42,170 nt of DNA from an uncultured Tissierellia bacterium (GCA_902489375.1 CABTZP010000001.1:1-42170); one strand, 5' to 3'. Positions 5,887-41,509 are shown, counted from the first letter of the stretch. Notes: generated by a model from the letters alone, not told the origin. Program-made: numbers and translations.

Positions 5887-6675
5887 TCATTTTTTCATTT
5901 GCTCGTCTTTTCTTTTTTTCAGCTCTTTTGCCAGATTGATGTAGGCCTGAGCACCTTTGGAGAATCGATCAAAGTGAATAATACTTTCTCCATAGGATGG
6001 AGCCTCGGCTAAACGAACATTTCGTGGAATCACCGTCTTAAAAACTCGATCTCCAAAATATTTTTTTACTTCTGCTTCGACATCCTGGGCAAGATTGGTC
6101 CTTCGATCGACCATGGAGAGAAGAACCCCCTCCACCTCTAAGGCGGGATTGATGCTTTTTCTGATCATCTCAAGGGTAGAGACCAGCTGGCTGACCCCTT
6201 CCAAGGCGAAAAATTCAGTTTGAATGGGTATCAAAACGGAATCTGAAGCCGCCAGGGCATTGAGACTAAGCATCCCTAAAGAGGGGGGACAGTCGATAAA
6301 GATATAATCATACCGGTCCTTCACCGCTTCCAAAGGTTTTTTTAATCTCAGGTTTCGGTCTTCCAGACCCAGGGCTTCGATTTCAAAACCGGTCAGATCC
6401 GGACTTGACGGAATCAAATGCAGGTGACTGTTTTGGATGTCTTTTTTTGCCTGATCCATCGTCGCGTTGCCCAGTAGGACCTGATAGAGATCCGCCGTAA
6501 GAGACTCCTTATCCACGCCCAATCCCGAAGTGGTGTTGCCCTGAGGATCCATATCCAGGACCAAAACTTTTTTCTTTTTTAAGGAGGTATCGGCGAGCGC
6601 CGTGGACAGATTGATGACGGTTGTCGTTTTGCCGACCCCGCCTTTTTGATTGTACACGCTAATAATTCGAGTCAT
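5887..6675 (-). CDS. parA: Chromosome partitioning ATPase ParA/Soj
   Basis: Deviant Walker A motif NQKGGVGKTTT. Length of 262 aa and position upstream of parB fit ParA. The start ATG overlaps the cinA stop (ATGA). Confidence 0.92.
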   Translation of the reverse strand: MTRIISVYNQKGGVGKTTTVINLSTALADTSLKKKKVLVLDMDPQGNTTSGLGVDKESLTADLYQVLLGNATMDQAKKDIQNSHLHLIPSSPDLTGFEIEALGLEDRNLRLKKPLEAVKDRYDYIFIDCPPSLGMLSLNALAASDSVLIPIQTEFFALEGVSQLVSTLEMIRKSINPALEVEGVLLSMVDRRTNLAQDVEAEVKKYFGDRVFKTVIPRNVRLAEAPSYGESIIHFDRFSKGAQAYINLAKELKKRKDEQMKK

Positions 6676-7925
6676 GGTTCCATCCTTTTTTGGCCTTCTT
6701 TTCGAAGATTAATCGTTGCCCGATCAATCGCCTGGTTGCAAATGATTCGTCGAATCATCTGCCGGCCGGTGTGGAGCTGGTATTCGTAAATCTCAACTTT
6801 TTCTCCGATGCCAATGCCCAAAAAGACGTGGCCGACTTCAGCGCCTTCTGGTCCTGCGTATCCAGTTGTCGCAATGCCCACATCGCATCCCGTTTTTTCC
6901 CGCAGGCCCTTTAACATTGCCCGGCAGGTTTTCTCAGAAACGGCGGAATCCCTTTTTAAAATTTTCTCAGGAACCCCAAGGACCTTTTGCTTGGCTTCAT
7001 CACTGTACACCACAAAAGACCCTTTGAAGGCTTTCGATGCTCCCGGACAATTGACAAATCTTGATGCCACCATTCCTCCAGTAAGGCTCTCCGCCATGGA
7101 AATCGTATAGTTTCTTTTTAACAGCTCCTTTAAAAGGGTTTCCTCCCGGCTTTCTTTATTCCAGTTGATGACTTTTTCTCCCAATTTTTCCTGGACAAGT
7201 TTAAGTCCCTTGTTCAAGCATTGATTTGCTTCTTCTTTGGTCTTTGCCTTCGCCGTAATGCGAACAAGGGCACCATCTGGCTTGACGTAGGGAGCAAAAG
7301 TAGGATTGGTGAAATTTTCCATTACGTATTCTAGCTCTTTAAAAAGCTGATATTCCCCAAGCAACCCCACCTTTACCTCCATAGAAAGGGTTGCAGCTTT
7401 GGCATGGTCCATTAAAGCCGGAACTAAGGCTAAGTCGACCATAGGCTCAAATTCGTCCGGTGGGCCTGGCAAAATGACAATGATTTTGTCTTTTCCATAG
7501 GCCTGAAAGGGAATCCATGCTCCAGAAGAGGTCCCGACAGTATTTTTTAATATTTTTGAACCCTGGGGAAAGATATAGGTTCTTTCTTCATCTTTTATGG
7601 ACTCAATATCCCCTTTAAAGAAGGCGGCAATTTGTTTTTTGCTCCCTTCGTCAATTTCCGTAGGAAGTCCAACGTATTGCAGAACGATGTTTTTGGTAAT
7701 ATCGTCATTCGTTGCGCCAAGGCCCCCCGACGTAATAACCATGTCCGATCGGGAAACGGCTAAATCCAGTGCCTTCAACAGCCTTTGATCATTGTCGCCA
7801 ACAACCTGAGTATGATAGACATCGTAGCCGAAGCTCGCCAGTATTCGACTCAGATACTGAACATCCGTATTAACGATATCGCCTAAAAGAAGTTCGGTTC
7901 CTACAGAAATGATTTCTACAATCAT
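6672..7925 (-). CDS. cinA: Competence/damage-inducible protein CinA (MoCF-binding domain plus PncC nicotinamide-nucleotide amidase domain)
   Basis: 417-aa ORF. The N-terminus MIVEIISVGTELLLGDIVNTD and the C-terminal SMAESLTGG...GYAGP motif are typical of full-length CinA. Confidence 0.88.
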   Translation of the reverse strand: MIVEIISVGTELLLGDIVNTDVQYLSRILASFGYDVYHTQVVGDNDQRLLKALDLAVSRSDMVITSGGLGATNDDITKNIVLQYVGLPTEIDEGSKKQIAAFFKGDIESIKDEERTYIFPQGSKILKNTVGTSSGAWIPFQAYGKDKIIVILPGPPDEFEPMVDLALVPALMDHAKAATLSMEVKVGLLGEYQLFKELEYVMENFTNPTFAPYVKPDGALVRITAKAKTKEEANQCLNKGLKLVQEKLGEKVINWNKESREETLLKELLKRNYTISMAESLTGGMVASRFVNCPGASKAFKGSFVVYSDEAKQKVLGVPEKILKRDSAVSEKTCRAMLKGLREKTGCDVGIATTGYAGPEGAEVGHVFLGIGIGEKVEIYEYQLHTGRQMIRRIICNQAIDRATINLRKEGQKRMEP

Positions 7926-17473: not shown

Positions 17474-18583
17474 ATGAAAATCCAAGTGATGCCACAGGAA
17501 ATGGTCAAATTTATTTCCATTAATCAAAGAGCCATTTCAACCAGAACGACCCTGCAGCTCCTCAAATGTATTCGTTTTGAGGCAGCTGATGATGAACTTT
17601 ATCTTCGTTCCACGGACAATGAATTGACGATCGAAAGTCACTTTCCTTGCCGGGTCATTGAACCGGGTGAAGTGATCATTCCCGCTGCCCTTATCGGGGA
17701 TATTTTTCGTAAGCTTCCTTCGGAGATGACCACCTTAACCGAAAAAATGGGAATGGTTACCATTACGTGCGGAGAGGTTCATTTTAATCTCCAGGCACCT
17801 TTAGTAGGAGAATTTCCTTCTTTGCCGGAAGTAAAAGAAGAAGAATGCACCCTTCTTTCCAATGAAGAGTTGATGCAATCCGTAAAGGAAACTGAATTTG
17901 CCGCTTCCCTGGATGATACCAAAGAAGCCATCACCGGCATTTTCTTTGATCAGCGGTCGGATCATATCCGGATGGTCGCTTTGGATGGGTATCGGCTAGC
18001 TGTAAAAAGGCTTTTGATGAAAAATCAAAAAGAACTTCCCGAATGTTCCTGCATTGTTCCGAAAAGAGCTTTTAATGAACTGATCCGGATGATTGACCCT
18101 CAGGAAAAAACATTCCTTCGGATTTTAGATGGCCATATCTACCTACAAAGCGGTTCTTTAAAAATGCTTTCCCGGACCATTGATCAGACCTATATCGAAT
18201 ACGAAGAAGTGATCACGGCCGAAAGTGCGAAAACCAAGGTCACCCTTTCCCGGCAGGCTTTGGTCAGCGCCCTGGAAAGAGCCTCGCTACTTTCTCGCGA
18301 GGATAAATCCAATCTTATTAAAATGAATTTTTCCGGCGATCAACTGCTGATTTCCTCGAATTCAGAACTGGGAAGCGTTGAGGAAACCCTGCCCTGCCAT
18401 CAAGAGGGAGAAGATCTTCTTATTGCTTTTAATGCCAAGTATATCTTAGAAGGAGTAAAAGCCTTTTCTTCTGACCGCCTTCTTTTGCATTTTGACGGGG
18501 AGCTAAATCCCTTGATCATTTACCCGGAAGAAGAGAAAAATTATCTCTATCTCGTCCTTCCCGTTCGCATAGCAGGTGAATAA
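17474..18583 (+). CDS. dnaN: DNA polymerase III beta sliding clamp
   Basis: 369 aa, in the canonical position after dnaA, with conserved three-domain clamp length and blocks (LDGYRLA, YLVLPVRI). Confidence 0.93.
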   Translation: MKIQVMPQEMVKFISINQRAISTRTTLQLLKCIRFEAADDELYLRSTDNELTIESHFPCRVIEPGEVIIPAALIGDIFRKLPSEMTTLTEKMGMVTITCGEVHFNLQAPLVGEFPSLPEVKEEECTLLSNEELMQSVKETEFAASLDDTKEAITGIFFDQRSDHIRMVALDGYRLAVKRLLMKNQKELPECSCIVPKRAFNELIRMIDPQEKTFLRILDGHIYLQSGSLKMLSRTIDQTYIEYEEVITAESAKTKVTLSRQALVSALERASLLSREDKSNLIKMNFSGDQLLISSNSELGSVEETLPCHQEGEDLLIAFNAKYILEGVKAFSSDRLLLHFDGELNPLIIYPEEEKNYLYLVLPVRIAGE

Positions 18584-24522: not shown

Positions 24523-24849
24523 ATGTCTTTTCATATGAAATTGGAACAAACAGAGGAGAAGATCCTCGTGATTTTGGAGGGTGATCTGGATATCAACTCT
24601 TCGCCGGAACTAAAAGAAGCAGTGATCAGGGCTTTTGAAAAATCGCCAAAAGAAATTGTTTTTGATTTTTCCCAGTTGGACTATTTGGATTCAACGGGCT
24701 TAGGGGCTTTAATGGCGATCTTTAAAGTGGCAAAAAAAGAGGGCTATTCCCTTCGCATTCGCAATGCGAAGAAAAATGTCCGAAAACTTTTTACGATTAC
24801 CGAACTAGATAAGGAATTTATCATGGAGGATCCGGATGCAGACCGTTAA
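24523..24849 (+). CDS. STAS-domain anti-sigma-factor antagonist (RsbV/SpoIIAA-like)
   Basis: 108 aa. DYLDSTGLGALM matches the RsbV phospho-serine motif (YMDSTGLG). It starts 9 nt after the gyrA stop, with an AAGGAGGA RBS. Confidence 0.85.
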   Translation: MSFHMKLEQTEEKILVILEGDLDINSSPELKEAVIRAFEKSPKEIVFDFSQLDYLDSTGLGALMAIFKVAKKEGYSLRIRNAKKNVRKLFTITELDKEFIMEDPDADR

Positions 24850-25171
24850 ATTGACGATTCCTTCTCAGCCTGAATATGTGACTACCCTTCGCCTGGTTAC
24901 CGCATCCCTGGCAAGGGGGATGGACTTTGATTATGAAGCCGTGGAAGATTTACGGGTTTGCGTTTCAGAGCTGGTGAATTACCTTTTACCTTTTAATGAG
25001 AAACTCAAAGTGATTTTCGAAGAAGAAAAGGACTGCATGAAAATTCGAATCAAAGCGGAAATGAAAGACGAAAAAAGTTCAGCCGCCCAAATGAGTCGGA
25101 TGATCCTGGAAAGTTTAATGGATGAAGTTTCTCGCGGCAAGGATGGCATTTATCTGGTAAAACACCGCTAA
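24836..25171 (+). CDS. Truncated RsbW/SpoIIAB-like anti-sigma factor lacking kinase G-boxes
   Basis: 111 aa. The N-terminal half IPSQPEYVTTLRLVTASLARGMDFDYEAVEDLRVCVSELVNYL aligns closely with B. subtilis RsbW as I recall it ([44 protein letters not shown]). The C-terminal ILESLMDEV aligns with RsbW LMETLMDEV. The G1 motif (DEG) reads AEMKD, the G2 motif (GGLGL) reads AAQMSRM, and roughly 35-50 aa of the ATP-lid region are missing. Confidence 0.7.
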   Translation: MQTVKLTIPSQPEYVTTLRLVTASLARGMDFDYEAVEDLRVCVSELVNYLLPFNEKLKVIFEEEKDCMKIRIKAEMKDEKSSAAQMSRMILESLMDEVSRGKDGIYLVKHR

Positions 25172-25181
25172 AGGAGATGGC

Positions 25182-26006
25182 ATGGCCAAGGCAAAAAAGA
25201 AAAAAACCGAAAAGCAGGAGAAAAAAGCGACGGAAGAAGCTGAATTTCTTGAGCTGAGAAAAACAGGCGACCCAAAGCTGAGAAATAAGATCATCACCGA
25301 TCATCTCTATATTGCGGAAATTTTGGCAAAGAAATACCTGAACCGGGGCATCGAATATGATGATCTTTTTCAGGTTGCCTCAATTGGTCTGATTTATGCG
25401 GTCGATCGCTATGATGTCAGCAAGGGCTATGCTTTTTCTTCTTTTGCAACGCCGACCATCATCGGAGAAATCAAGAGACATTTTCGAGACAAGGGCTGGG
25501 TGATCCGGGTACCGCGCAGAATTCAGGAACTTTCAAAAAAAATCAATCTGGCGCGAAATATTCTTTCCCAGGAACTTCAAAGACAGCCTACCGTAGATGA
25601 TATTGCCGAATATCTCAATGTCTCTGTAGAAGAAGTTCTGGAAGCGATGGAGGCTTCTCAGGTTTATTCTCCCCAATCCCTGGACAAGTCCTTTGACCTG
25701 GGTGCGGATGATCGGGAAATGAGTTTGGCCGATGTTCTGGGTCAAGAAGATGAAGGCTTCGAAGACATTGATTTTTATGACGTCGTTGAAAAACTAACGG
25801 GTCATCTTAATGATCTCGAAAAGAAAATTTTTTACTACCGGTATTACGATAAAAGAACCCAGATTTCCATTGCTGAGGAACTCAATGTTTCTCAGATGAC
25901 GGTATCGCGCATTGAAAAAAAGATCATTCAAAAGTTTCGCGATGCCCTAAATATCAGTCCGAAGGATTTAAAAAAATCCAAATCAAAGACTCATTTGACG
26001 AGCTAA
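25182..26006 (+). CDS. Group-3 sigma-70 family factor, SigB/SigF/SigG subfamily (most SigB-like)
   Basis: Region 2 reads [58 protein letters not shown]. Region 3 reads [22 protein letters not shown]. Region 4 reads [21 protein letters not shown]. The closest match I recall is B. subtilis SigB ([30 protein letters not shown]). Confidence 0.85.
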   Translation: [274 protein letters not shown]

Positions 26007-30130: not shown

Positions 30131-31123
30131 ATGAATGAAATGACAAAAAAAAGAACACTGATTAGCCCAACCGGACAAGGAACTCCCGTTCCTGTTGGCG
30201 ATGAAATCAGAATTCAGGTCGAAAAAAAACCCGGAGAAAGCCACGAAGAAGCTGTTATTCGGATGTTTCCACAGATTTATGATCTTTTCGGAAGAGATCT
30301 TCTTCCCCTGGAAGAGATTGAACACGCCCTTCAGACTACCTACCGGATCCGGCTCCTTTCCCGCTTTACCCGGGCTTTGAAAGATTATGAGATGCTTAAA
30401 CCAGGGGATAAGGTTGCCGTCGCGATTTCCGGAGGAAAAGATTCCCTTCTTTTGGCAAAGCTCTTTCAGATTCTTCAGCGCTATACCAAAATTCCTTTTG
30501 AATTAGACTTTCTCGCCATGGATCCGGGCTATGCGCCCATCAACCGGGATCTTCTGATCTTTAACCTAGCCTGGCTGGGCATTCCTGCCCGGGTAAAAAA
30601 GTCAGATATTTTTCAGGTTTCCGAAACGATTTCTCAAAAGCCCTGCTATCTTTGCGCACGAATGAGAAGAGGCTTTCTTTATGGCAATGCCAAGGAGATG
30701 GGATGTAATAAAGTGGCGCTAGGCCATCATTTTAATGATGTGATTGAAACGACTTTGTTAAACCTTCTCTGGTCAGCCAACTACAAAATCATGATGCCGA
30801 AAATCATCGCCCAAAACTTTGATCACATGGAGCTCATTCGGCCGATGTATTACATCGAGGAATCATCCATTATCGCTTTTCGGGATTTTATTGGCCTTAA
30901 GGCCCTAGATTGCGCCTGTTCAGTAACGGCTAGCAAGGAAAGCTCACAGAGAAGAGAAGTGAAGGCGCTGATCCAAAAACTTAAAAAAGACAATCCCAAT
31001 GTTGAAAAGTCCATCTTTCGAAGCGGGGAAAATGTTGCCGTCGATGCGATTTTGGGCTATGTCAACCGAGGGAAAAAGCACAGCTTTTTGGAACATTACG
31101 GAGATGAAGAATGGAATTTTTAA
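30131..31123 (+). CDS. PP-loop ATPase, TtcA-like tRNA thiolation enzyme
   Basis: PP-loop AISGGKDS, cysteine motifs CYLCARMRRG and DCACS, and LGHHFND. The start is ambiguous (TTG 30128 or ATG 30131). The ~70-aa N-terminal extension is unusual. Confidence 0.7.
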   Translation: MNEMTKKRTLISPTGQGTPVPVGDEIRIQVEKKPGESHEEAVIRMFPQIYDLFGRDLLPLEEIEHALQTTYRIRLLSRFTRALKDYEMLKPGDKVAVAISGGKDSLLLAKLFQILQRYTKIPFELDFLAMDPGYAPINRDLLIFNLAWLGIPARVKKSDIFQVSETISQKPCYLCARMRRGFLYGNAKEMGCNKVALGHHFNDVIETTLLNLLWSANYKIMMPKIIAQNFDHMELIRPMYYIEESSIIAFRDFIGLKALDCACSVTASKESSQRREVKALIQKLKKDNPNVEKSIFRSGENVAVDAILGYVNRGKKHSFLEHYGDEEWNF

Positions 31124-35790: not shown

Positions 35791-35831
35791 GACCGCCGCT
35801 TTTAAGAAAAAAATTGAAGAAAAAAAGGCAT

Positions 35832-35915
35832 AAAAAAAGAGCCGCCTTTAGATGGGATCATGCCGAAAAGGACCTTTCGGGCATGATCGATCAAAAAGGA
35901 CAGGGCTCTTTTTTT
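35832..35915. terminator. Compound bidirectional terminator between DUF951 gene and glyA
   Basis: The inner hairpin is GATCATGCCGAAA / TTTCGGGCATGATC (35856-35888). It is nested inside the outer pairing AAAAAAAGAGCC (35832-35843) / GGCTCTTTTTTT (35904-35915), which gives a U-tract in either reading direction. Confidence 0.6.
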
Positions 35916-35928
35916 CGTTCAATTTCTA

Positions 35929-37158
35929 TCAATAGGATGGATACCAGAGGGGGTGCTTTTCGGTTAAAGCCAGCACTTCTTTAGAGAGTCTTTCCAGCTG
36001 GGATTCCTGATCCCGGTTTTCAATGGCTTCGGAAATGATCTGAGCGACCTTTCTAAAGTCATCTTCTTTAAAGCCCCGTGAGGTCATTGCGGGAACCCCA
36101 AGGCGAAGGCCGGAGGTGACGGCAGGAGATTCTGTTTCGTTGGGAATGGTATTTTTGTTTGCCGTGATATGGATTCGGTCCAAAAGTTCTTCCGCATCCT
36201 TACCGGTGATGCCCTTGCTTTTGACGTTTAAAAGGACCATGTGATTATCTGTTCCGCCGGCGACAATAGTAAAGCCTTCTTTTATCAGCTCATCGGCAAA
36301 GGCTTTGGCATTGGCGACCACCTGCTTTTGATAGTTCACAAATTCCGGCTGCAGGGCCTCATAAAGGGCCTGGGCCTTGGCGCCGATCACGTGCATAAGA
36401 GGACCGCCCTGGATTCCAGGGAAAATGGCGTGATTAATTTTTTTATAGATTTCCTTATCGTTGGTCATAATCATGCCGCCTCTCGGGCCCCGGAGGGTTT
36501 TATGGGTGGTTGTCGTGACCAGATCAGCATAGGGACAAGGATTAGGATGGAGTCCCGCCGCAACAAGACCTGCAATGTGGGCCATGTCCACCATCAAAAA
36601 GCAGCCGACCTCATCCGCGATTTCTCTAAATTTTTTAAAATCAATGGTTCGGGAATAAGCGGAGGCGCCGGCAACGATAACATTGGGCTTTTCTTCCAGC
36701 GCCATTTGTCGAATGGCATCATAATTGAGCTGTTCGGTTACCGGATCTATCCCATATTGAACGATTTGATAGTCTTCTCCACTGAAAGAAACCGGACTAC
36801 CATGGGTCAAATGGCCGCCGTCACTGAGGCGCATCCCCATAATTTTTTCTCCATGTTTTAAAAGAGCCCGGTAGGCCGCCATATTTGCGGAAGAGCCGGA
36901 ATGGGGCTGAACATTGACATACTTTACCTGGAAGAGTTCCTTTGCGTAGGATCGGGCCTGGCGCTCAAAGATATCGATGTACTCACAGCCGCCGTAGTAT
37001 CTGCGACCGGGATAGCCCTCGGCGTATTTGTTATTGAGAATGCTTCCCTGAAGTTCCAGGACGGCATTCGAAGGATAATTTTCACTGGCAATTAACTCAA
37101 TATTTTTTTCCTGACGGCTGCGCTCGGCAACCAAGGCTTCCTTCAAAATGGGATCCAT
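35929..37158 (-). CDS. glyA: Serine hydroxymethyltransferase
   Basis: ELIASENY and the PLP-lysine motif [14 protein letters not shown]. Start refined to ATG 37158 (MDPILKEAL), with GGAGGAGG 9 nt upstream. Confidence 0.95.
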
Positions 37159-37250
37159 ATTTTTCATCCTCCTCCGTGTTAAAAGTCTTTTTTTCCATCC
37201 GCGTCCAATCAAGGCCAGAGCAAGCGGGCCTTAAAGGCAAATCTTTGGAC

Positions 37251-37754
37251 CTACCGGCGGAGAAAGTCCGCCCGGCCCGGTTCGGTCGCCGGAATTTCAT
37301 AACCGGCTTTTTGCATTTCATGAAGTTTCATCAGCAAGAGGTGAATATCGACATTTAAGATCTGGGCGATACCGACCACATCATATCCGTCTCGAGCCAG
37401 CTGTTCAATCTCTTTTTCCTCTAACAGCAAATGACAGGCAAAAAGATTCGCTTCATATTCGGTCCGGGAGCTGGCCGAAAAAAGGGTAAACGGGACAAGG
37501 TCAGCGATGCCCTCAGAAGGCCGGTGCAAAAGGGCATGGCCCAATTCATGGGCAAGAACCGTTCGCCGCTCCTGATCACCCATATTGGCATTGAGAAAAA
37601 TACAGGACCTTCCTTCAATCACGGCATACATTCCCAAGAGATTCTCGAAATCCGACCGGTTATACAAAGAAATTGACAGGGCGGAAACCAGCTCTTCCGG
37701 GTCGGAAGTCTTATACTGATCTTTCAGCCCTTGCACCATTTCTTTCATATTCAT
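37251..37754 (-). CDS. ImmA/IrrE-family (M78/DUF955) metallopeptidase
   Basis: HEXXH motif in VLAHELGHALLH, with a downstream EYEANLFACHLLL block typical of ImmA/IrrE proteases. The start overlaps the stop of the XRE gene (TAATG). Confidence 0.85.
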   Translation of the reverse strand: MNMKEMVQGLKDQYKTSDPEELVSALSISLYNRSDFENLLGMYAVIEGRSCIFLNANMGDQERRTVLAHELGHALLHRPSEGIADLVPFTLFSASSRTEYEANLFACHLLLEEKEIEQLARDGYDVVGIAQILNVDIHLLLMKLHEMQKAGYEIPATEPGRADFLRR

Positions 37755-38143
37755 TAAAATTTCTCCCGGCGGCCGTCCCAGTAGGCATCTTCCAGGGCTT
37801 TCATGACAGCATCCTTATCCCGGCTGGAAAGCTTGCCTCCGGAAAACATGGCCTGGGCCTGCCGAATCAGAGTCTCGGCCTGGATTTTCCCGTCTTCCTT
37901 TTCCCACATCGCATGCATCTCTTCTTCTTCATTCTCAACGAACAGGTAATTGAGGCGGACATGGAAAAGCTCTGCCATTTTTTCATAGGTTTCCCGGCTT
38001 TTGGGATAGGACTGGCCGGATTCATAGGAACCGACCGTTCGGGTGGATACGCCGATTTTTTCTCCCAGAGCGCGTTGGGTCAAACCGGCCTTTTTTCTCA
38101 GCGCTTTGATTTTTTCTGCAAAGGTCACAGGATCCTCCTTCAT
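37754..38143 (-). CDS. XRE-family helix-turn-helix transcriptional regulator (ImmR-like)
   Basis: HTH_3 region FAEKIKALRKKAGLTQRALGEKIGVSTRTVGSYESG. The C-terminal helical domain FSGGKLSSRDKDAVMKALEDAYW is common in ImmA-partnered repressors. The likely start is ATG 38143 (nearly leaderless); the track start at 38218 would run into the promoter/operator region. Confidence 0.85.
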   Translation of the reverse strand: MKEDPVTFAEKIKALRKKAGLTQRALGEKIGVSTRTVGSYESGQSYPKSRETYEKMAELFHVRLNYLFVENEEEEMHAMWEKEDGKIQAETLIRQAQAMFSGGKLSSRDKDAVMKALEDAYWDGRREKF

Positions 38144-38158
38144 GGTCGCAAAATCAAG

Positions 38159-38187
38159 AAGATAAAGTTCTTGTTTCTTCTTGACAA
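38159..38187 (-). promoter_or_regulatory. Candidate divergent promoter for the XRE-ImmA operon
   Basis: The minus strand reads TTGTCA (38182-38187), a 17-nt spacer, then TATCTT (38159-38164). Its -35 overlaps the -35 of the plus-strand promoter. Its -10 lies inside operator copy A. The predicted start is a few nt from ATG 38143. Confidence 0.4.
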
Positions 38188-38209
38188 AGGAAGATAAACT
38201 TCCTATACT
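38181..38209 (+). promoter_or_regulatory. Near-consensus sigma-A promoter reading toward the Y-family polymerase gene
   Basis: TTGACA (38181-38186), a 17-nt spacer, then TATACT (38204-38209). The spacer is entirely occupied by operator copy B. Copies C and D lie just downstream of the predicted transcription start. Confidence 0.65.
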
Positions 38210-38314
38210 GATATCCAAGAGGGGAAAGAAGAAGTTTATCTTCTTGAAGTTTACTTCTTTTTGAGGGAACTGTCAAAAGGAAAAGCGGGGGTGGGAGCAG
38301 AAAGAGAGAAGGAA

Positions 38315-39565
38315 ATGAAAAAAACCATCCTTCATGCCGATATGAATTCTTGTTACGTCTCCATTGAACAAGCTCGTCATCCCGAGTTAAAAGGAAAGGC
38401 GGTAGCGGTTGGCGGGTCAGAAAAAGATCGAAATGGGATTATTTTAGCCAAGTCAATTGAGGCGAAGGCCCAGGGAGTAAAGACCGGCGAGGTCATCTGG
38501 CAGGCCAAAGGCAAATGTCCGAACCTGATGATTCTTCCCGCTGATTTTGCGCTGTATCTGACCTATTCGAAGCTGGCTCATGCGATTTACCGGGAATACA
38601 CGGATCGGATTGAACCCTTTGGCATTGATGAATGCTGGCTGGATGTTACCGAAAGTCAGAAGCTTTTTGGAAATGGAGATGTGATTGCTGAGGAGCTGAG
38701 AAGAAGATTTCGAGAAGAGCTGGACATCACTATCTCGGTGGGAATTTCTGACAATAAAATATTTGCGAAACTCGGCAGCGATTATAAAAAGCCGGATGCG
38801 CAAACGAGAATTGATTTGGAAAATTATCAGAAAATTGCCTGGCCTCTTCCGGTAGAAGATCTGCTTTATTGCGGGCCAAGGACAAGGAAAAAGCTTCATC
38901 GCATGGGGGTGATGACAATAGGGAATCTGGCAAAGACGGACCCTTCCTTTATTCAAAAGTTTCTTGGCGTAAATGGCCTTCGCCTTTGGATTGCCGCCAA
39001 TGGAAGGGATGATACGCCGGTTGCCCGGGAAGATTTTGTCCCCCCGATCAAGTCCATCGGCTGTGGAACAACCTTTCGAAGAGATCTTAGAAATGATAAG
39101 GAAGTAAAAGGGGGACTGATTGCTTTGGCCCAGGAGCTGGAAAAAAAGCTGATCGAGAAAAAATTTTCCGGAAAAAGCCTCCACCTTTCCGTTCGAGACG
39201 GCCTGCTGGCTTATCAGGAGGCCAAAATGAACCTGGCCTATCCAGTACAAAATGCCAGCGAGCTTGCCGAAAGTGGCTTTTCTCTTTTTTGCCAGACTTG
39301 GACCTGGAAGCATCCGGTTCGGGCGATGACCCTAAGGGTCAGTGACCTTTTTCCCGAACAAACGGCCGTTCAAAGGGCCTTTTTTCCTGATTTTTTACGG
39401 CATGAAAAAAAAGAGAGATTAGGGAAAACAATTCATGAACTTCAAAAGCGATACGGCCCGCAATCGGTCCAGCCTGCGGTTATGAAAGATTTTCACCAGG
39501 CCGATCTTTTACGGCCCCGGGCGACCATGCCGTCAAATTGCTTTTCCGCGCTTCGAAAAGCCTGA
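38315..39565 (+). CDS. dinB: Y-family DNA polymerase (DinB/Pol IV-like)
   Basis: The N-terminus ILHADMNSCYVSIEQ (catalytic Asp), FGIDECWLDVT and SVGISDNKIFAKLGSDYKKPD are Y-family palm motifs. ATG 38315 is preferred over the TTG at 38261. Confidence 0.85.
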   Translation: MKKTILHADMNSCYVSIEQARHPELKGKAVAVGGSEKDRNGIILAKSIEAKAQGVKTGEVIWQAKGKCPNLMILPADFALYLTYSKLAHAIYREYTDRIEPFGIDECWLDVTESQKLFGNGDVIAEELRRRFREELDITISVGISDNKIFAKLGSDYKKPDAQTRIDLENYQKIAWPLPVEDLLYCGPRTRKKLHRMGVMTIGNLAKTDPSFIQKFLGVNGLRLWIAANGRDDTPVAREDFVPPIKSIGCGTTFRRDLRNDKEVKGGLIALAQELEKKLIEKKFSGKSLHLSVRDGLLAYQEAKMNLAYPVQNASELAESGFSLFCQTWTWKHPVRAMTLRVSDLFPEQTAVQRAFFPDFLRHEKKERLGKTIHELQKRYGPQSVQPAVMKDFHQADLLRPRATMPSNCFSALRKA

Positions 39566-39712
39566 CCTCTGAGAAGAGGCCCGAAAAATCCCAAGGGGAA
39601 GGGGGAAAGAAGGATTGCTTTCTTTTTCAGATTGAGATAGGTTGAAATGGGCTTTGAAAAAAAGATGATTTTCAATTTGAATAAGCGAACTCGCTTGAGA
39701 AAGGAAAGGCCT

Positions 39713-40633
39713 ATGATTTACACGGTTACCTTAAATCCCTCCCTCGACTTTATTACCGTGGTTAAAGACTTAAAAAAGGGAAAAATCAACCGATCTTGTG
39801 AAGATAGCATGAATGCTGGCGGCCATGCGATTACGGTCTCCCGATTTTTAAATATTTTGCAGATGCCGACGACCGCAACCGGTTTTGTTGGAGGAAAAAC
39901 CGGCGCCTTTGTCGAGGATGAACTTAGCCGGCAGGGAATCGCCCATCATTTCATTCACATTAAGGAAAATACCCGAATCAACCTGGGCATTTTTTCCGGG
40001 GGCATGGAGACCCGGATTAATGGGACGGGCCCTCACGTTAGCCTGGAGGAAATCAATGATCTGATGTACTATCTTTCCCGGATTCGGGAAGGAGATGTTG
40101 TCATTATGGCTGGATCCATTCCTAAGGATATGCCTCCCAGCGTTTACAGCCGGATTGTTGAGATTGCCGTTGTCAATGGAGCTGACTTTATTCTTCACGT
40201 TGATCAGGCGTTGGTCAAGCCGATCCTTCAAAAGGGACCCCTTCTGGTGACCCCAAGCCTGGAAGATCTTTCTGAATTTTACGGGCAGGAAGTCCTCACG
40301 AAAGAAGACGTATTAAAATATGGAATGCGCTATTTTAACGAAGGACCAAAAAATGTCCTGGTCAATATGGGACTGGAAGGATCCATGCTTTTTGCGGAAG
40401 ATGGAAAAATCTATGAGGCCGGAGGCCCCGGAAAAACCATTATTTCCACAACCTACGCGGATATGGGTCTGGTTGCCGGCTTTGTTGGCGATTATATGCG
40501 AACGGGAAACCCAAAAGAAGCCTTTCATTTAGCCCAGGTCATTGGTCATGCGGCCTGTTATGTTCAAACCTTGCCAAATATGGACCTTCTTCGTCAGGCC
40601 GGCGAAGAGGTGGAGATTCTTCCTCTTAATTGA
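39713..40633 (+). CDS. fruK: 1-phosphofructokinase / PfkB-family sugar kinase
   Basis: The MIYTVTLNPSLDFI N-terminus is typical of FruK. There is a C-terminal PfkB signature region (..TTYADMGLVAGF..). A ~306-aa product results from ATG 39713 (AGGAAAGG RBS). No fruR or fruA is adjacent. Confidence 0.7.
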   Translation: MIYTVTLNPSLDFITVVKDLKKGKINRSCEDSMNAGGHAITVSRFLNILQMPTTATGFVGGKTGAFVEDELSRQGIAHHFIHIKENTRINLGIFSGGMETRINGTGPHVSLEEINDLMYYLSRIREGDVVIMAGSIPKDMPPSVYSRIVEIAVVNGADFILHVDQALVKPILQKGPLLVTPSLEDLSEFYGQEVLTKEDVLKYGMRYFNEGPKNVLVNMGLEGSMLFAEDGKIYEAGGPGKTIISTTYADMGLVAGFVGDYMRTGNPKEAFHLAQVIGHAACYVQTLPNMDLLRQAGEEVEILPLN

Positions 40634-40645
40634 GCGGAAGAAAAA

Positions 40646-40670
40646 GGCAGAAAGATTTTTTCTTTCTGCC
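40646..40670. terminator. Intrinsic terminator between convergent fruK and NYN genes
   Basis: GGCAGAAAGA-TTTT-TCTTTCTGCC is a perfect 10-bp stem. On the minus strand it is followed by TTTTTCTTCC. Confidence 0.75.
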
Positions 40671-40690
40671 TGAGTCGAGATATGGAGATT

Positions 40691-41488
40691 TTACTGTTTT
40701 ATTCGGACAAAGACCTGTTTTCCGCCTTCTTTAGTGATTTGCCGGCGTTCGGTTTCTAAGGATTCCATGGACTCTATAAAAGGGGCCAACTTCTTATATC
40801 CGTAATTTCGGACATCAAAATCAGGAAAGCGCTTAGAAAGTTGGTTTCCCAAGTCTGCCAGAGAGATCCAGGAATCCTCATCGGAATTTTCCATAATAAT
40901 GGAACGGATAGCCCGGCGGAGGGTAGAGAACTTCGTCAGGGGCTGGGCCTTTTCCCGGTGAGCGCTCTGGCTTTTTTCCCCGTTTACTAAGCTGGCATTG
41001 GCTCCCGAATTTTCCTGGGAATCCGGTCCGTCTTCAGCGTCATTTTGATGGTCACTATAAAGAATGTCCAAATATTTAAACGTATTGCAGGCCGCAATAA
41101 AGGCCGGTGGCGTCTTGCTCTCTCCCATTCCGATGACATTCATTCCGGATTCCCGAAGGCGGGAGGCCAGACGGGTAAAGTCACTGTCAGAGCTCACCAG
41201 CACAAAGCCATCGACCGTCATGGTATAGAGAATATCCATGGCGTCAATAATTAAGGCAGAGTCCGAGGAATTTTTCCCATTAGTATAGGAATACTGCTGG
41301 ATAGGCGTAATGGAGGCATCCAGGAGGGTTCTTTTCCACCGGTTATTTTGCGTTTGTGTCCAGTCTCCGTATATGCGCCGGTAGGTGGTTATTCCGTACG
41401 TGGACACTTCGTCAAAAATAGTCTGAATATACTTTGGCGAAATATTTTCCGCGTCAATAAGTAAGGCATACTGATCTTCTTCGTTCAT
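40691..41488 (-). CDS. NYN-domain (LabA/PIN-like) protein with C-terminal OST-HTH/LOTUS domain
   Basis: The N-terminus ALLIDAENISPKYIQTIFDEV...YGDW...VLVSSDSDFTRLASRLRESG is the NYN/LabA pattern. The C-terminal WISLADLGNQLSKRFPDFDVRNYGYKKLAPFIES fits OST-HTH. Confidence 0.75.
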   Translation of the reverse strand: MNEEDQYALLIDAENISPKYIQTIFDEVSTYGITTYRRIYGDWTQTQNNRWKRTLLDASITPIQQYSYTNGKNSSDSALIIDAMDILYTMTVDGFVLVSSDSDFTRLASRLRESGMNVIGMGESKTPPAFIAACNTFKYLDILYSDHQNDAEDGPDSQENSGANASLVNGEKSQSAHREKAQPLTKFSTLRRAIRSIIMENSDEDSWISLADLGNQLSKRFPDFDVRNYGYKKLAPFIESMESLETERRQITKEGGKQVFVRIKQ

Positions 41489-41509
41489 TTTTTGCTCCTG
41501 CGAAATCGT

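Follow-up and report, generated by a model that had tools for sequence, protein, structure and literature searches.

A candidate phage-type repressor/metalloprotease module divergent from a Pol IV-like polymerase gene in the oriC region of an uncultured Tissierellia bacterium

The window analysed here, a stretch of 42,170 nt from an uncultured Tissierellia bacterium (GCA_902489375.1 CABTZP010000001.1:1-42170; positions are counted from its first letter), contains a compact cassette in which an XRE repressor gene (xre) and the gene of an ImmA-like M78 metalloprotease (immA), both on the minus strand, are divergent from the gene of a Pol IV-like Y-family polymerase (polY) on the plus strand (Table 1). 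A sequence-only reading of the window had proposed that these genes form a LexA-independent damage switch, an interpretation that is supported in part by the present analysis. The list of open reading frames (ORFs), the sequence itself and a Pfam scan bear out the gene content it described, and the reported TAATG overlap of xre and the protease gene is real, base 37754 being common to the stop of the former and the start of the latter. In the least saturated comparisons, the ratio of nonsynonymous to synonymous substitution rates (dN/dS) is 0.09-0.13 for xre, immA and polY alike, which indicates that all three genes are under purifying selection.

Table 1. Positions of the cassette genes, the adjoining genes, and the predicted promoters (P) and candidate operators (O) of the xre-polY intergenic region
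Feature	Position	Strand	Description
xre	37754-38128 (alternative start 38143)	minus	HTH_3, E 1.2e-14 (Pfam)
immA-like M78 protease gene	37251-37754	minus	167 aa; Peptidase_M78/IrrE-N PF06114, E 3.3e-14
polY	38315-39565	plus	416 aa; IMS E 2.9e-42 and IMS_C E 9.4e-17
glyA (serine hydroxymethyltransferase, SHMT)	35929-37167	minus	SHMT match, E 6.7e-168
pfkB-family hexose kinase gene	39647-40633	plus	PfkB 2.3e-27; TIGR03168 1.5e-69; downstream of polY
P_polY	38181-38209	plus	TTGACA-17-TATACT, 11/12; adjoins xre start, fires to polY; predicted leader ~100 nt
P_xre	38276-38248	minus	TTGACA (38276-38271)-17-TAAACT (38253-38248), 10/12; adjoins polY start, fires to xre
O1	38156-38173	plus	core GAAGATAAAGTTC, 38158-38170; upstream of P_polY -35, within xre leader
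O2	38188-38205	plus	core GAAGATAAACTTC, 38190-38202; in 17-nt spacer of P_polY
O3	38229-38246	minus	core GAAGATAAACTTC, 38231-38243; between the two -10 boxes
O4 (variant)	38246-38257	plus	GAAGTTTACTTC, 12 nt, 4-nt spacer; overlaps P_xre -10; weaker evidence than O1-O3

The repressor gene is present as first described, with a start that differs from the one proposed. It had been read from ATG 38143 (129 aa), which has no Shine-Dalgarno sequence and whose own first codons, AAG GAG G, supply a perfect AAGGAGG 5 nt ahead of GTG 38128 (read from the sequence). From this GTG the protein has 124 aa; gene callers give 124-125 aa on identical and near-identical contigs, and homologue alignments begin at the same position. 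On these three grounds, GTG 38128 is the most likely start of xre.

The XRE protein matches the repressor of phage phi105 (28% identity over 121 aa, E 2e-8) and, over its full length, the phi106 repressor 9sf2 (E 7e-6, residues 10-123 in the 129-aa numbering), and PADLOC returns a capH match (E 8.3e-12). An AlphaFold2 (AF2) model consists of an N-terminal five-helix helix-turn-helix (HTH) region followed by two C-terminal helices (67-95 and 102-123) joined by a linker (96-101, SGGKLS), with F95 ending the first of the two. Encoded on the same strand as the protease and directly upstream of it, XRE is, by homology, an HTH repressor of the phi105/ImmR type whose C-terminal region consists of two helices. 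Nearly all of 34 family members, phages included, keep the motif (L/M)-F-(A/S)-G-G-x-L-xxx-D-K-D-A-V-M-x-A-L-xx-A-Y-W in this region; in a pairwise alignment it lies opposite phi105 'LSFSGEPMSQEAVESLMEAM', and the window protein carries AMF95-S96-GG. In ICEBs1, ImmR is cut by ImmA at F95-M96, in the linker joining its two C-terminal helices (PMC8960796), and the F-[AS]-G-G motif of XRE aligns with this region. Cleavage of XRE at F95-S96 is predicted because the motif aligns with the phi105 repressor, the ImmR cut site is similarly placed and the model has a linker at 96-101.

The protease carries an HELGH motif (H69-E70-L-G-H73, residues 69-73) and the third-ligand motif EYEAN (99-103), of which H69, E70, H73, E99 and E101 are invariant across 26 homologues. 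It shares 34.8% identity over 84% of length with the ImmA ORF in the phi105 immunity region (E 2e-12) and matches the phrog_87 metallo-protease family (1.2e-24) and, in PADLOC, capP (E 1.2e-11). A profile search of solved structures returned IrrE/PprI and CapP, and Foldseek placed nearly the whole length of the AF2 model (predicted local distance difference test score, pLDDT, 84) on PprI (8sln; E 1.8e-4, TM 0.60) and CapP (7t5t; TM 0.61). These matches span only the N-terminal parts of IrrE and CapP. The model comprises a peptidase domain plus a short helical region; no GAF domain is found in the 167 aa by model, profile or fold matches, and neither the alignment nor the model contains a conserved cysteine (cysteine switch) between HEXXH and the third ligand. 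We thus have a small single-domain M78/COG2856 protease with HEXXH and a downstream Glu ligand, and not the three-domain type of IrrE/CapP (peptidase, HTH, GAF) with a groove for single-stranded DNA (ssDNA). The likeness to characterised pairs that the sequence-only reading had pointed to is therefore one of homology to phi105 and ICEBs1 and, distantly, to IrrE/DdrO and CapP/CapH; its transfer of DdrO/IrrE sensing fails on the missing GAF domain. We rejected ssDNA sensing as in IrrE/CapP for a protease that has neither this domain nor a cysteine-switch loop. The C-terminal tail (window 37251-37281), disordered in the model (pLDDT <50), ends in a conserved P-x-[AS]-D-F-L (RADFLRR in the window) and could matter for activation, as a signal for docking or for degradation.

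The polY product has the IMS palm/fingers and little-finger domains of the Y family. Its catalytic residues are D9 and D104-E105; it also has the KIFAKLGSDYKKPD motif and, beyond the little finger, a QRAFF that resembles a clamp-binding motif. D9, D104-E105 and a KxFAKLxSDxKKPD motif are conserved in its family; the catalytic motif columns are kept in at least 90% of the 33 polymerases taken from triads like that of the window (see below), most of which have a Q-x-x-[LF]-F similar to the clamp motif. The best NCBIfam matches are to Pol IV models (NF002848, 6.4e-97), yet these stay below the curated cutoffs; further matches are to the Pol IV structure 7yll in PDB (3.5e-43) and to phrog_1268 (2.8e-80). 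A UvrX/UmuC-type identity was rejected on 23% identity to SPbeta UvrX versus 40-45% to the polymerases of Heliusvirales phages, together with the clear Pol IV matches. No YolD or ImuB-C gene adjoining polY was found in the window. Close to the very C-terminus, many triad polymerases also carry a short motif that contains M-P and lies beyond the clamp-like one (e.g., VTMPGMMY; in the window RATMPSNCF, 39460-39565).

Between xre and polY lie 186 nt that contain three exact 13-mers of the form GAAGATAAA(C/G)TTC, the cores of O1 to O3, the last of them inverted. The sequence GAAGATAAASTTC has four exact copies in the whole window, three of them in this intergenic region, versus none in 100 shuffles. 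P_polY and P_xre are the best sigma-70-like sites in the 4-kb region scanned. Since P_polY adjoins xre and P_xre adjoins polY, the two promoters face each other, with -10 ends 39 nt apart, predicted start sites ~25 nt apart and leaders of ~100 nt on both sides. This face-to-face geometry resembles that of P2/186-type phage switches. O1 and the variant O4 would flank the promoters, with O2 in the P_polY spacer and O3 between them (approximately +15 to +27 relative to P_polY and +1 to +11 relative to P_xre); centre-to-centre distances of 32 bp (O1-O2) and 41 bp (O2-O3) are near whole helical turns. In close relatives, the two promoters, O2 and O3 stand out as conserved blocks while the flanking leaders have diverged: P_polY, the O3 core, the ACTTC half of O4 and the T-run that follows it are invariant, and O2 is almost invariant. 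XRE may bind O1-O4 and repress both P_polY and its own promoter.

With their flanks, O1 and O3 form a 24-nt inverted repeat (38154-38177 / 38224-38247; 92% complementary, 46 nt between arms), and since most of both arms falls within the predicted xre leader, this leader could fold into a long hairpin. A sub-threshold Rfam match to LhrC covers this repeat (E 0.31). A structured RNA or riboswitch in the two ~100-nt leaders or upstream of glyA was considered and rejected, Rfam giving only two sub-threshold matches there (E 0.2-0.3). The fourth operator 13-mer, GAAGATAAAGTTC, lies at 17594-17606 on the minus strand, ~120 nt into dnaN (17474-18583, plus); its flanks do not extend the palindrome, and it may be a chance occurrence or a real second binding site. 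The gene with this extra copy encodes the sliding clamp, and the polY protein carries the clamp-binding-like motif mentioned above.

Protease homologues are few (54 clusters at E < 1e-5). A protease-profile scan with one genome per species yielded 80 loci, all from Clostridia, Tissierellia and allies. The divergent polY<>xre-immA triad recurs in 28 of these 80 loci, which were found by the protease alone, a result that supports the earlier treatment of the three genes as a functional unit. A weaker-scoring Y-family polymerase lies downstream on the same strand in eight, a polymerase within 6 kb in another position in two, no polymerase nearby in 36, and in six no upstream XRE was detected.

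The promoter arrangement recurs with the triad. Requiring both promoters to score at least 10/12 with -10 boxes 15-70 nt apart, we found a face-to-face pair in 29 of 34 triad intergenic regions but in only one of 3400 shuffles. When these regions were aligned by the polY promoter and inspected, near-consensus TTGACA-17/18-TATAAT towards polY was accompanied by a mirrored TATAAT-17-TTGACA towards xre. Locus-specific palindromes (e.g., CACAAT-N3-ATTGTG, ACACGAA-N6-TTCGTGT and GACCG-N3-CGGTC) recur in the polY spacer and between the -10 boxes, often also in the xre spacer. That lineages differ in their operators at the same positions would fit co-evolution of operator and repressor. An automated, repeat-based search for operators across loci was confounded by inverted promoter hexamers and gave way to this promoter-anchored inspection. 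While the comparative genomics is solid, the biology of the switch is read from sequence.

Other arrangements were also seen among the relatives. In the sampled loci of the co-directional group, the polymerase is a 457-500-aa IMS protein (UvrX/UmuC-like), with a YolD-family protein next to it in at least one locus. Here xre-immA is followed, sometimes after a NUDIX or WapI-like gene, by the polymerase (L016, L027, L048, L051, L053, L055 and L083 from genomes; L098-L101 and L115 from IMG/VR), and in L099 the YolD-family protein comes after the polymerase. A third arrangement of the three genes is found in Monoglobus pectinilyticus (L086, NZ_OY725729.1, plasmid 5), where xre-immA is followed ~1 kb on by a co-directional Pol IV gene (46% identical to the window polymerase); the circular record has 37.7 kb, and its annotation is that of a non-mobilizable plasmid. 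In many polymerase-less loci (L015, L023, L028, L034, L037, L063, L065, L071, L078, L079 and others), a conserved protein of ~190-200 aa with weak phrog_1558 and "transcriptional activator" matches is divergent from xre-immA, and a sigma-70 region-4 protein is often next; five upstream neighbours carry a second M78 domain. These loci look like other phage or integrative and conjugative element (ICE) immunity regions.

Pairs of this kind have also been described in another context. Makarova et al. (2009) predicted that COG2856-Xre pairs are toxin-antitoxin (TA)-like mobile two-gene modules or regulatory ones, with targets then still to be identified, and for Brucella a TA system consisting of a ZnMP/HTH-Xre pair has been described. 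XRE and the protease could by this token be an addiction pair that merely sits beside polY without controlling it, as the 36 pairs with no polymerase nearby might suggest. We consider this highly improbable, given candidate repressor-specific operators in the spacer of the polY promoter and immediately beyond it, a polymerase linkage that recurs in 28 + 8 of 80 species-level loci, and the specific relationship of repressor and protease to the regulatory pairs of phi105 and ICEBs1.

Control of error-prone polymerases sets the bacterial mutation rate under stress, including that imposed by antibiotics, and the textbook form of this control is LexA/RecA. We looked for LexA boxes in the 42-kb window and the 34 triad intergenic regions. 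As the sequence-only reading had stated, no Cheo box (GAAC-N4-GTTC) lies between xre and polY, even with up to one mismatch (38123-38334), and the promoter region of polY lacks the mark of the LexA/SOS regulon. The only exact GAAC-N4-GTTC in the window is at 30180, and none of the 34 triad intergenic regions has an exact copy. LexA control of polY was rejected on these grounds, near-matches elsewhere lying mostly in operator-like repeats. It is nevertheless conceivable that polY is additionally or mainly controlled by LexA through a non-canonical or distant site and that XRE and the M78 protease only fine-tune it. Most Bacillota have LexA, and one-mismatch Cheo sites occur in nine of the 34 triad regions versus 7.5% of shuffles. 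None of these nine is from the window or its closest relatives, however, and several fall within repeated operator-like motifs, which together with the lack of any exact box makes this explanation very unlikely. The claim of LexA-independence can thus be kept, as far as the canonical box in the window and the other 33 triad regions is concerned, but it does not extend to SOS- or RecA-independence: ImmA of ICEBs1 responds to damage through RecA (Lau et al., 2022), and therefore LexA-independent is a reasonable description whereas RecA-independent is not.

The window covers the oriC region of the chromosome (mnmE, mnmG, rsmG, cinA, parAB, rnpA, yidC, jag, dnaA, dnaN, recF, gyrBA and others), and the cassette lies ~21 kb from dnaA. 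No integrase, phage or conjugation genes were found by Pfam among the large ORFs of the 42-kb window, a repeat search for flanking repeats gave only short chance matches, and the GC content of the cassette (0.46-0.50) is like that of its flanks, all of which agrees with the earlier account. A mobile element in the window was therefore rejected; nor does the window hold excision or lytic genes of such an element for the module to control. Relatives with 74-100% identical protease have the same gene order, glyA included. Where the protease is 54-63% identical, pfkB-polY<>xre-immA is kept between CNNM/CorC, MscS, DUF951 and NYN genes, the four-gene block has the opposite orientation to that in the window, and no glyA is among the called genes. 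The cassette of the window is chromosomal and occupies the same neighbourhood in related species. A direct comparison of loci L004 and L005 with window 35800-41500 places pfkB-polY-xre-immA between DUF951 and an NYN/OST-HTH gene in both; in the clade of the window the block is inverted relative to these loci and glyA is joined to it.

The same triad occurs in phages. In tblastn searches of phage records with the protease and the polymerase, the best matches were Candidatus Heliusvirales temperate gut phages. In PV036429, PV036445 and PV036413, an annotated "DNA polymerase", the first in a leftward series of early genes, is divergent from a "transcriptional repressor" and a "metallo-protease"; the polymerases are 40-45% identical to polY (E 1e-104 to 1e-114) and the proteases 35-42% identical to that of the window, and all three intergenic regions have face-to-face promoters. 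"A DNA polymerase" is among the nine marker genes of the Heliusvirales order (PMC11283538), and the text of that paper makes no mention of "repressor", "metallo", "lysogen" or "Y-family" and does not describe the triad module. At least seven of the 28 genomic triads share gene families with Heliusvirales (large serine recombinase, DUF2800 exonuclease, second M78 protein); the remaining ones have heterogeneous neighbours, mostly large genes. Among the best 80 protease relatives in IMG/VR, the divergent triad is found in three and the co-directional arrangement in five. As Heliusvirales, at least seven genomic triads and IMG/VR relatives carry it, the module circulates in temperate phages. The contrast that the sequence-only reading drew between a chromosomal cassette and a mobile-element immunity module was accordingly too sharp, although its chromosomal location in the window stands, and the copy in the window is best seen as a domesticated phage-type module.

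Such a copy might also be a prophage relic, that is, a Heliusvirales-like immunity region kept for superinfection immunity, in which the polymerase is a passenger without host regulatory purpose. The triad and its promoters do sit at the repressor/early-operon junction of the three Heliusvirales phages, which have the closest phage polymerases; a DNA polymerase is a marker gene of that order; and the families shared by at least seven of the 28 genomic triads include a serine integrase and the exonuclease. We regard the relic explanation as unlikely all the same. The 42-kb window contains no other phage gene, the chromosomal neighbourhood is the same in relatives down to 54% protease identity, and all three genes have dN/dS of ~0.1, the polymerase too, with its catalytic motifs kept. 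Moreover, immunity and host use can coexist.

Taken together, the cassette is probably an ImmR/ImmA-type (phi105-like) module of repressor and anti-repressor protease that has become fixed in the chromosome, with a single Pol IV-like translesion polymerase as its cargo. XRE would probably dimerise via its two C-terminal helices and bind operators of the form GAAG-N5-CTTC. Bound to O2 and O3 it would silence the strong polY promoter, and bound to O3 and O4 it would partly repress its own xre-immA operon. RNA polymerase at one promoter should hinder the other, because the two are face to face with start sites ~25 nt apart, and loss of the repressor could be reinforced by interference of P_polY with P_xre, as in a phage-type switch. 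Upon a damage-linked signal, the co-translated M78 protease would cut XRE at the predicted F95-S96 site and separate the HTH from the last helix, so that polY would be derepressed. According to Lau et al. (2022), DNA damage leads to cleavage of both ImmR and the repressor of phi105 by ImmA, and in IrrE/DdrO and CapP/CapH the principle is the same, with a protease that cleaves the repressor after damage. Judging from ICEBs1 and phi105, a signal that depends on RecA/ssDNA is probable, and LexA would not be needed; the signal is the weakest step of the model.

Several points weigh against this interpretation. The C-terminal half of the XRE model is of low confidence (pLDDT 50-70). P_polY and P_xre are consensus-based predictions, and there is a weaker, back-to-back alternative for P_xre (38187-38159, 9/12). 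That 36 of 80 XRE-M78 pairs have no polymerase means that the pair is not intrinsically dedicated to polymerases. The protease is without the GAF domain and the inter-domain groove used by IrrE and CapP for ssDNA sensing, so the activating signal need not be DNA damage, and ImmA of ICEBs1 is also activated by the RapI quorum signal, independently of damage (Lau et al., 2022). The same circuit could thus respond to another trigger, such as a cell-density/Rap-like signal, zinc or redox status, or phage infection; in favour of this, besides RapI and the missing GAF/ssDNA groove, is the dependence of IrrE activity on zinc availability. A translesion polymerase is nonetheless the cargo in two independent architectures (DinB-like divergent and UvrX-like/YolD co-directional), which points to DNA damage, and the characterised proteases (ImmA, phi105 ImmA, IrrE and CapP) respond to DNA damage. 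A trigger other than damage is for these reasons an unlikely alternative to the damage-linked one.

Compared with characterised systems, the module is close in design to ICEBs1 ImmR/ImmA and the phi105 (phi106) pairs. It shares with them the repressor-then-protease order with overlapping or adjacent genes, a small single-domain M78 protease (~167 aa), an HTH plus two C-terminal helices in the repressor, and several operators (predicted here) in a divergent control region. The evident differences are that the target is one chromosomal translesion polymerase gene and not excision, conjugation or lytic genes, and that the window has no integrase or other genes of such elements. The Heliusvirales junction has an identical triad, face-to-face near-consensus promoters and the same repressor C-terminal motif. 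There, however, the polymerase comes first in a long operon of early genes, that of an exonuclease among them, and the genome also encodes an integrase and structural proteins, whereas polY of the window stands alone, followed only by a sugar kinase gene, in an oriC-proximal housekeeping region.

DdrO/IrrE and CapH/CapP likewise pair an XRE repressor with an M78 protease, with similarity at the level of profile and fold, and the protease cleaves the C-terminal dimerisation region of the repressor after damage, leading to LexA-independent induction. CapH/CapP further resembles the cassette in that the genes of the regulator pair and the target operon are divergent. IrrE and CapP are proteins of ~290 aa with a peptidase-HTH-GAF arrangement in which ssDNA lies in the peptidase-GAF groove, unlike the window protease with its lack of GAF domain and cysteine switch. 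In Deinococcus, the regulon under DdrO is dispersed and there is no linkage of irrE to ddrO, while the evident target here is the adjacent gene. Local non-LexA regulators of error-prone polymerases are also known from the streptococcal umuC operon of Tn5252/Tn5253 (UmuD/MucA-like regulator) and from Acinetobacter (UmuDAb). These are LexA/UmuD-like S24 serine autopeptidases in one polypeptide; in the window the repressor and a zinc metalloprotease are separate proteins.

In a literature search, we found no experimental study of an XRE/ImmA pair that controls a Y-family polymerase. Aravind, Anand and Iyer (2013; PMC3765255) computationally linked zincin-like DUF955 (= Peptidase_M78) peptidases to DinB/ImuB-C neighbourhoods and proposed an SOS-related proteolytic step. 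The relevant passages of that paper give no repressor, operator, promoter, phage connection or mechanism, and, unlike in the neighbourhoods described there, no ImuB-C gene was found beside the cassette of the window. Against the papers searched, the recognition of the repressor, its operators and a conserved face-to-face design of the promoters, the identity of the module with the repressor/early-gene junction of Heliusvirales and the existence of one lineage with the module fixed chromosomally look new; the operator repeats and the promoter geometry are additions to the sequence-only reading.

If the model is confirmed, many anaerobic Bacillota, gut Clostridia included, would control a Pol IV-like enzyme by a two-protein, phage-derived repressor/metalloprotease system, and the cassette would clearly exemplify the domestication of a decision switch from a phage for a function of the host. 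The occurrence of a Y-family polymerase as a hallmark gene next to the repressor, in an order of phages that is very widespread in the human gut, would then be explained as well. The conserved face-to-face promoters and F-[AS]-G-G motif give testable predictions, and the motif predicts the cleavage site in ImmA-type systems. More speculatively, a temperate-phage lysis/lysogeny switch, made up of a phi105-type repressor, an ImmA protease and face-to-face promoters that interfere with each other, may have been captured and fixed near oriC in one Tissierellia lineage, and independently in other Clostridia, to become a LexA-independent, possibly bistable controller of error-prone synthesis, such that only a subpopulation turns mutagenic after damage. 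We give this extension little weight; were it true, the operator copy in dnaN (17594-17606) would hint that the repressor also touches sliding-clamp expression.

Downstream of immA, glyA follows after a gap whose length varies with the choice of glyA start, from 83 to 92 nt; 92 nt had been given before. Scans found neither a terminator-like site or stable structure (folding z = 0.08) nor a promoter-like site in this gap. Read-through into glyA is thus possible, as previously suggested. The adjacency itself is not a conserved feature of the system: it is confined to the closest clade (protease 74-100% identical), and in distant relatives a Na/Pi cotransporter or NYN-domain gene takes this place. 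A promoter-like site within the protease gene (37408-37380, 9/12) could serve glyA. On the other side, the pfkB-family kinase gene, whose likely true start is ATG 39713 (MIYTVTLNP), is syntenic with polY throughout the family of the window, and its co-transcription with polY is only putative. Elsewhere in the window, cinA lies at 6672-7925, between parA and rsmG. Directly after gyrA, a STAS-domain anti-sigma antagonist gene, an unassigned ORF of 111 aa and a gene for a sigma-70 family factor (24523-26006) look like a SigF/SigB-type partner-switching module.

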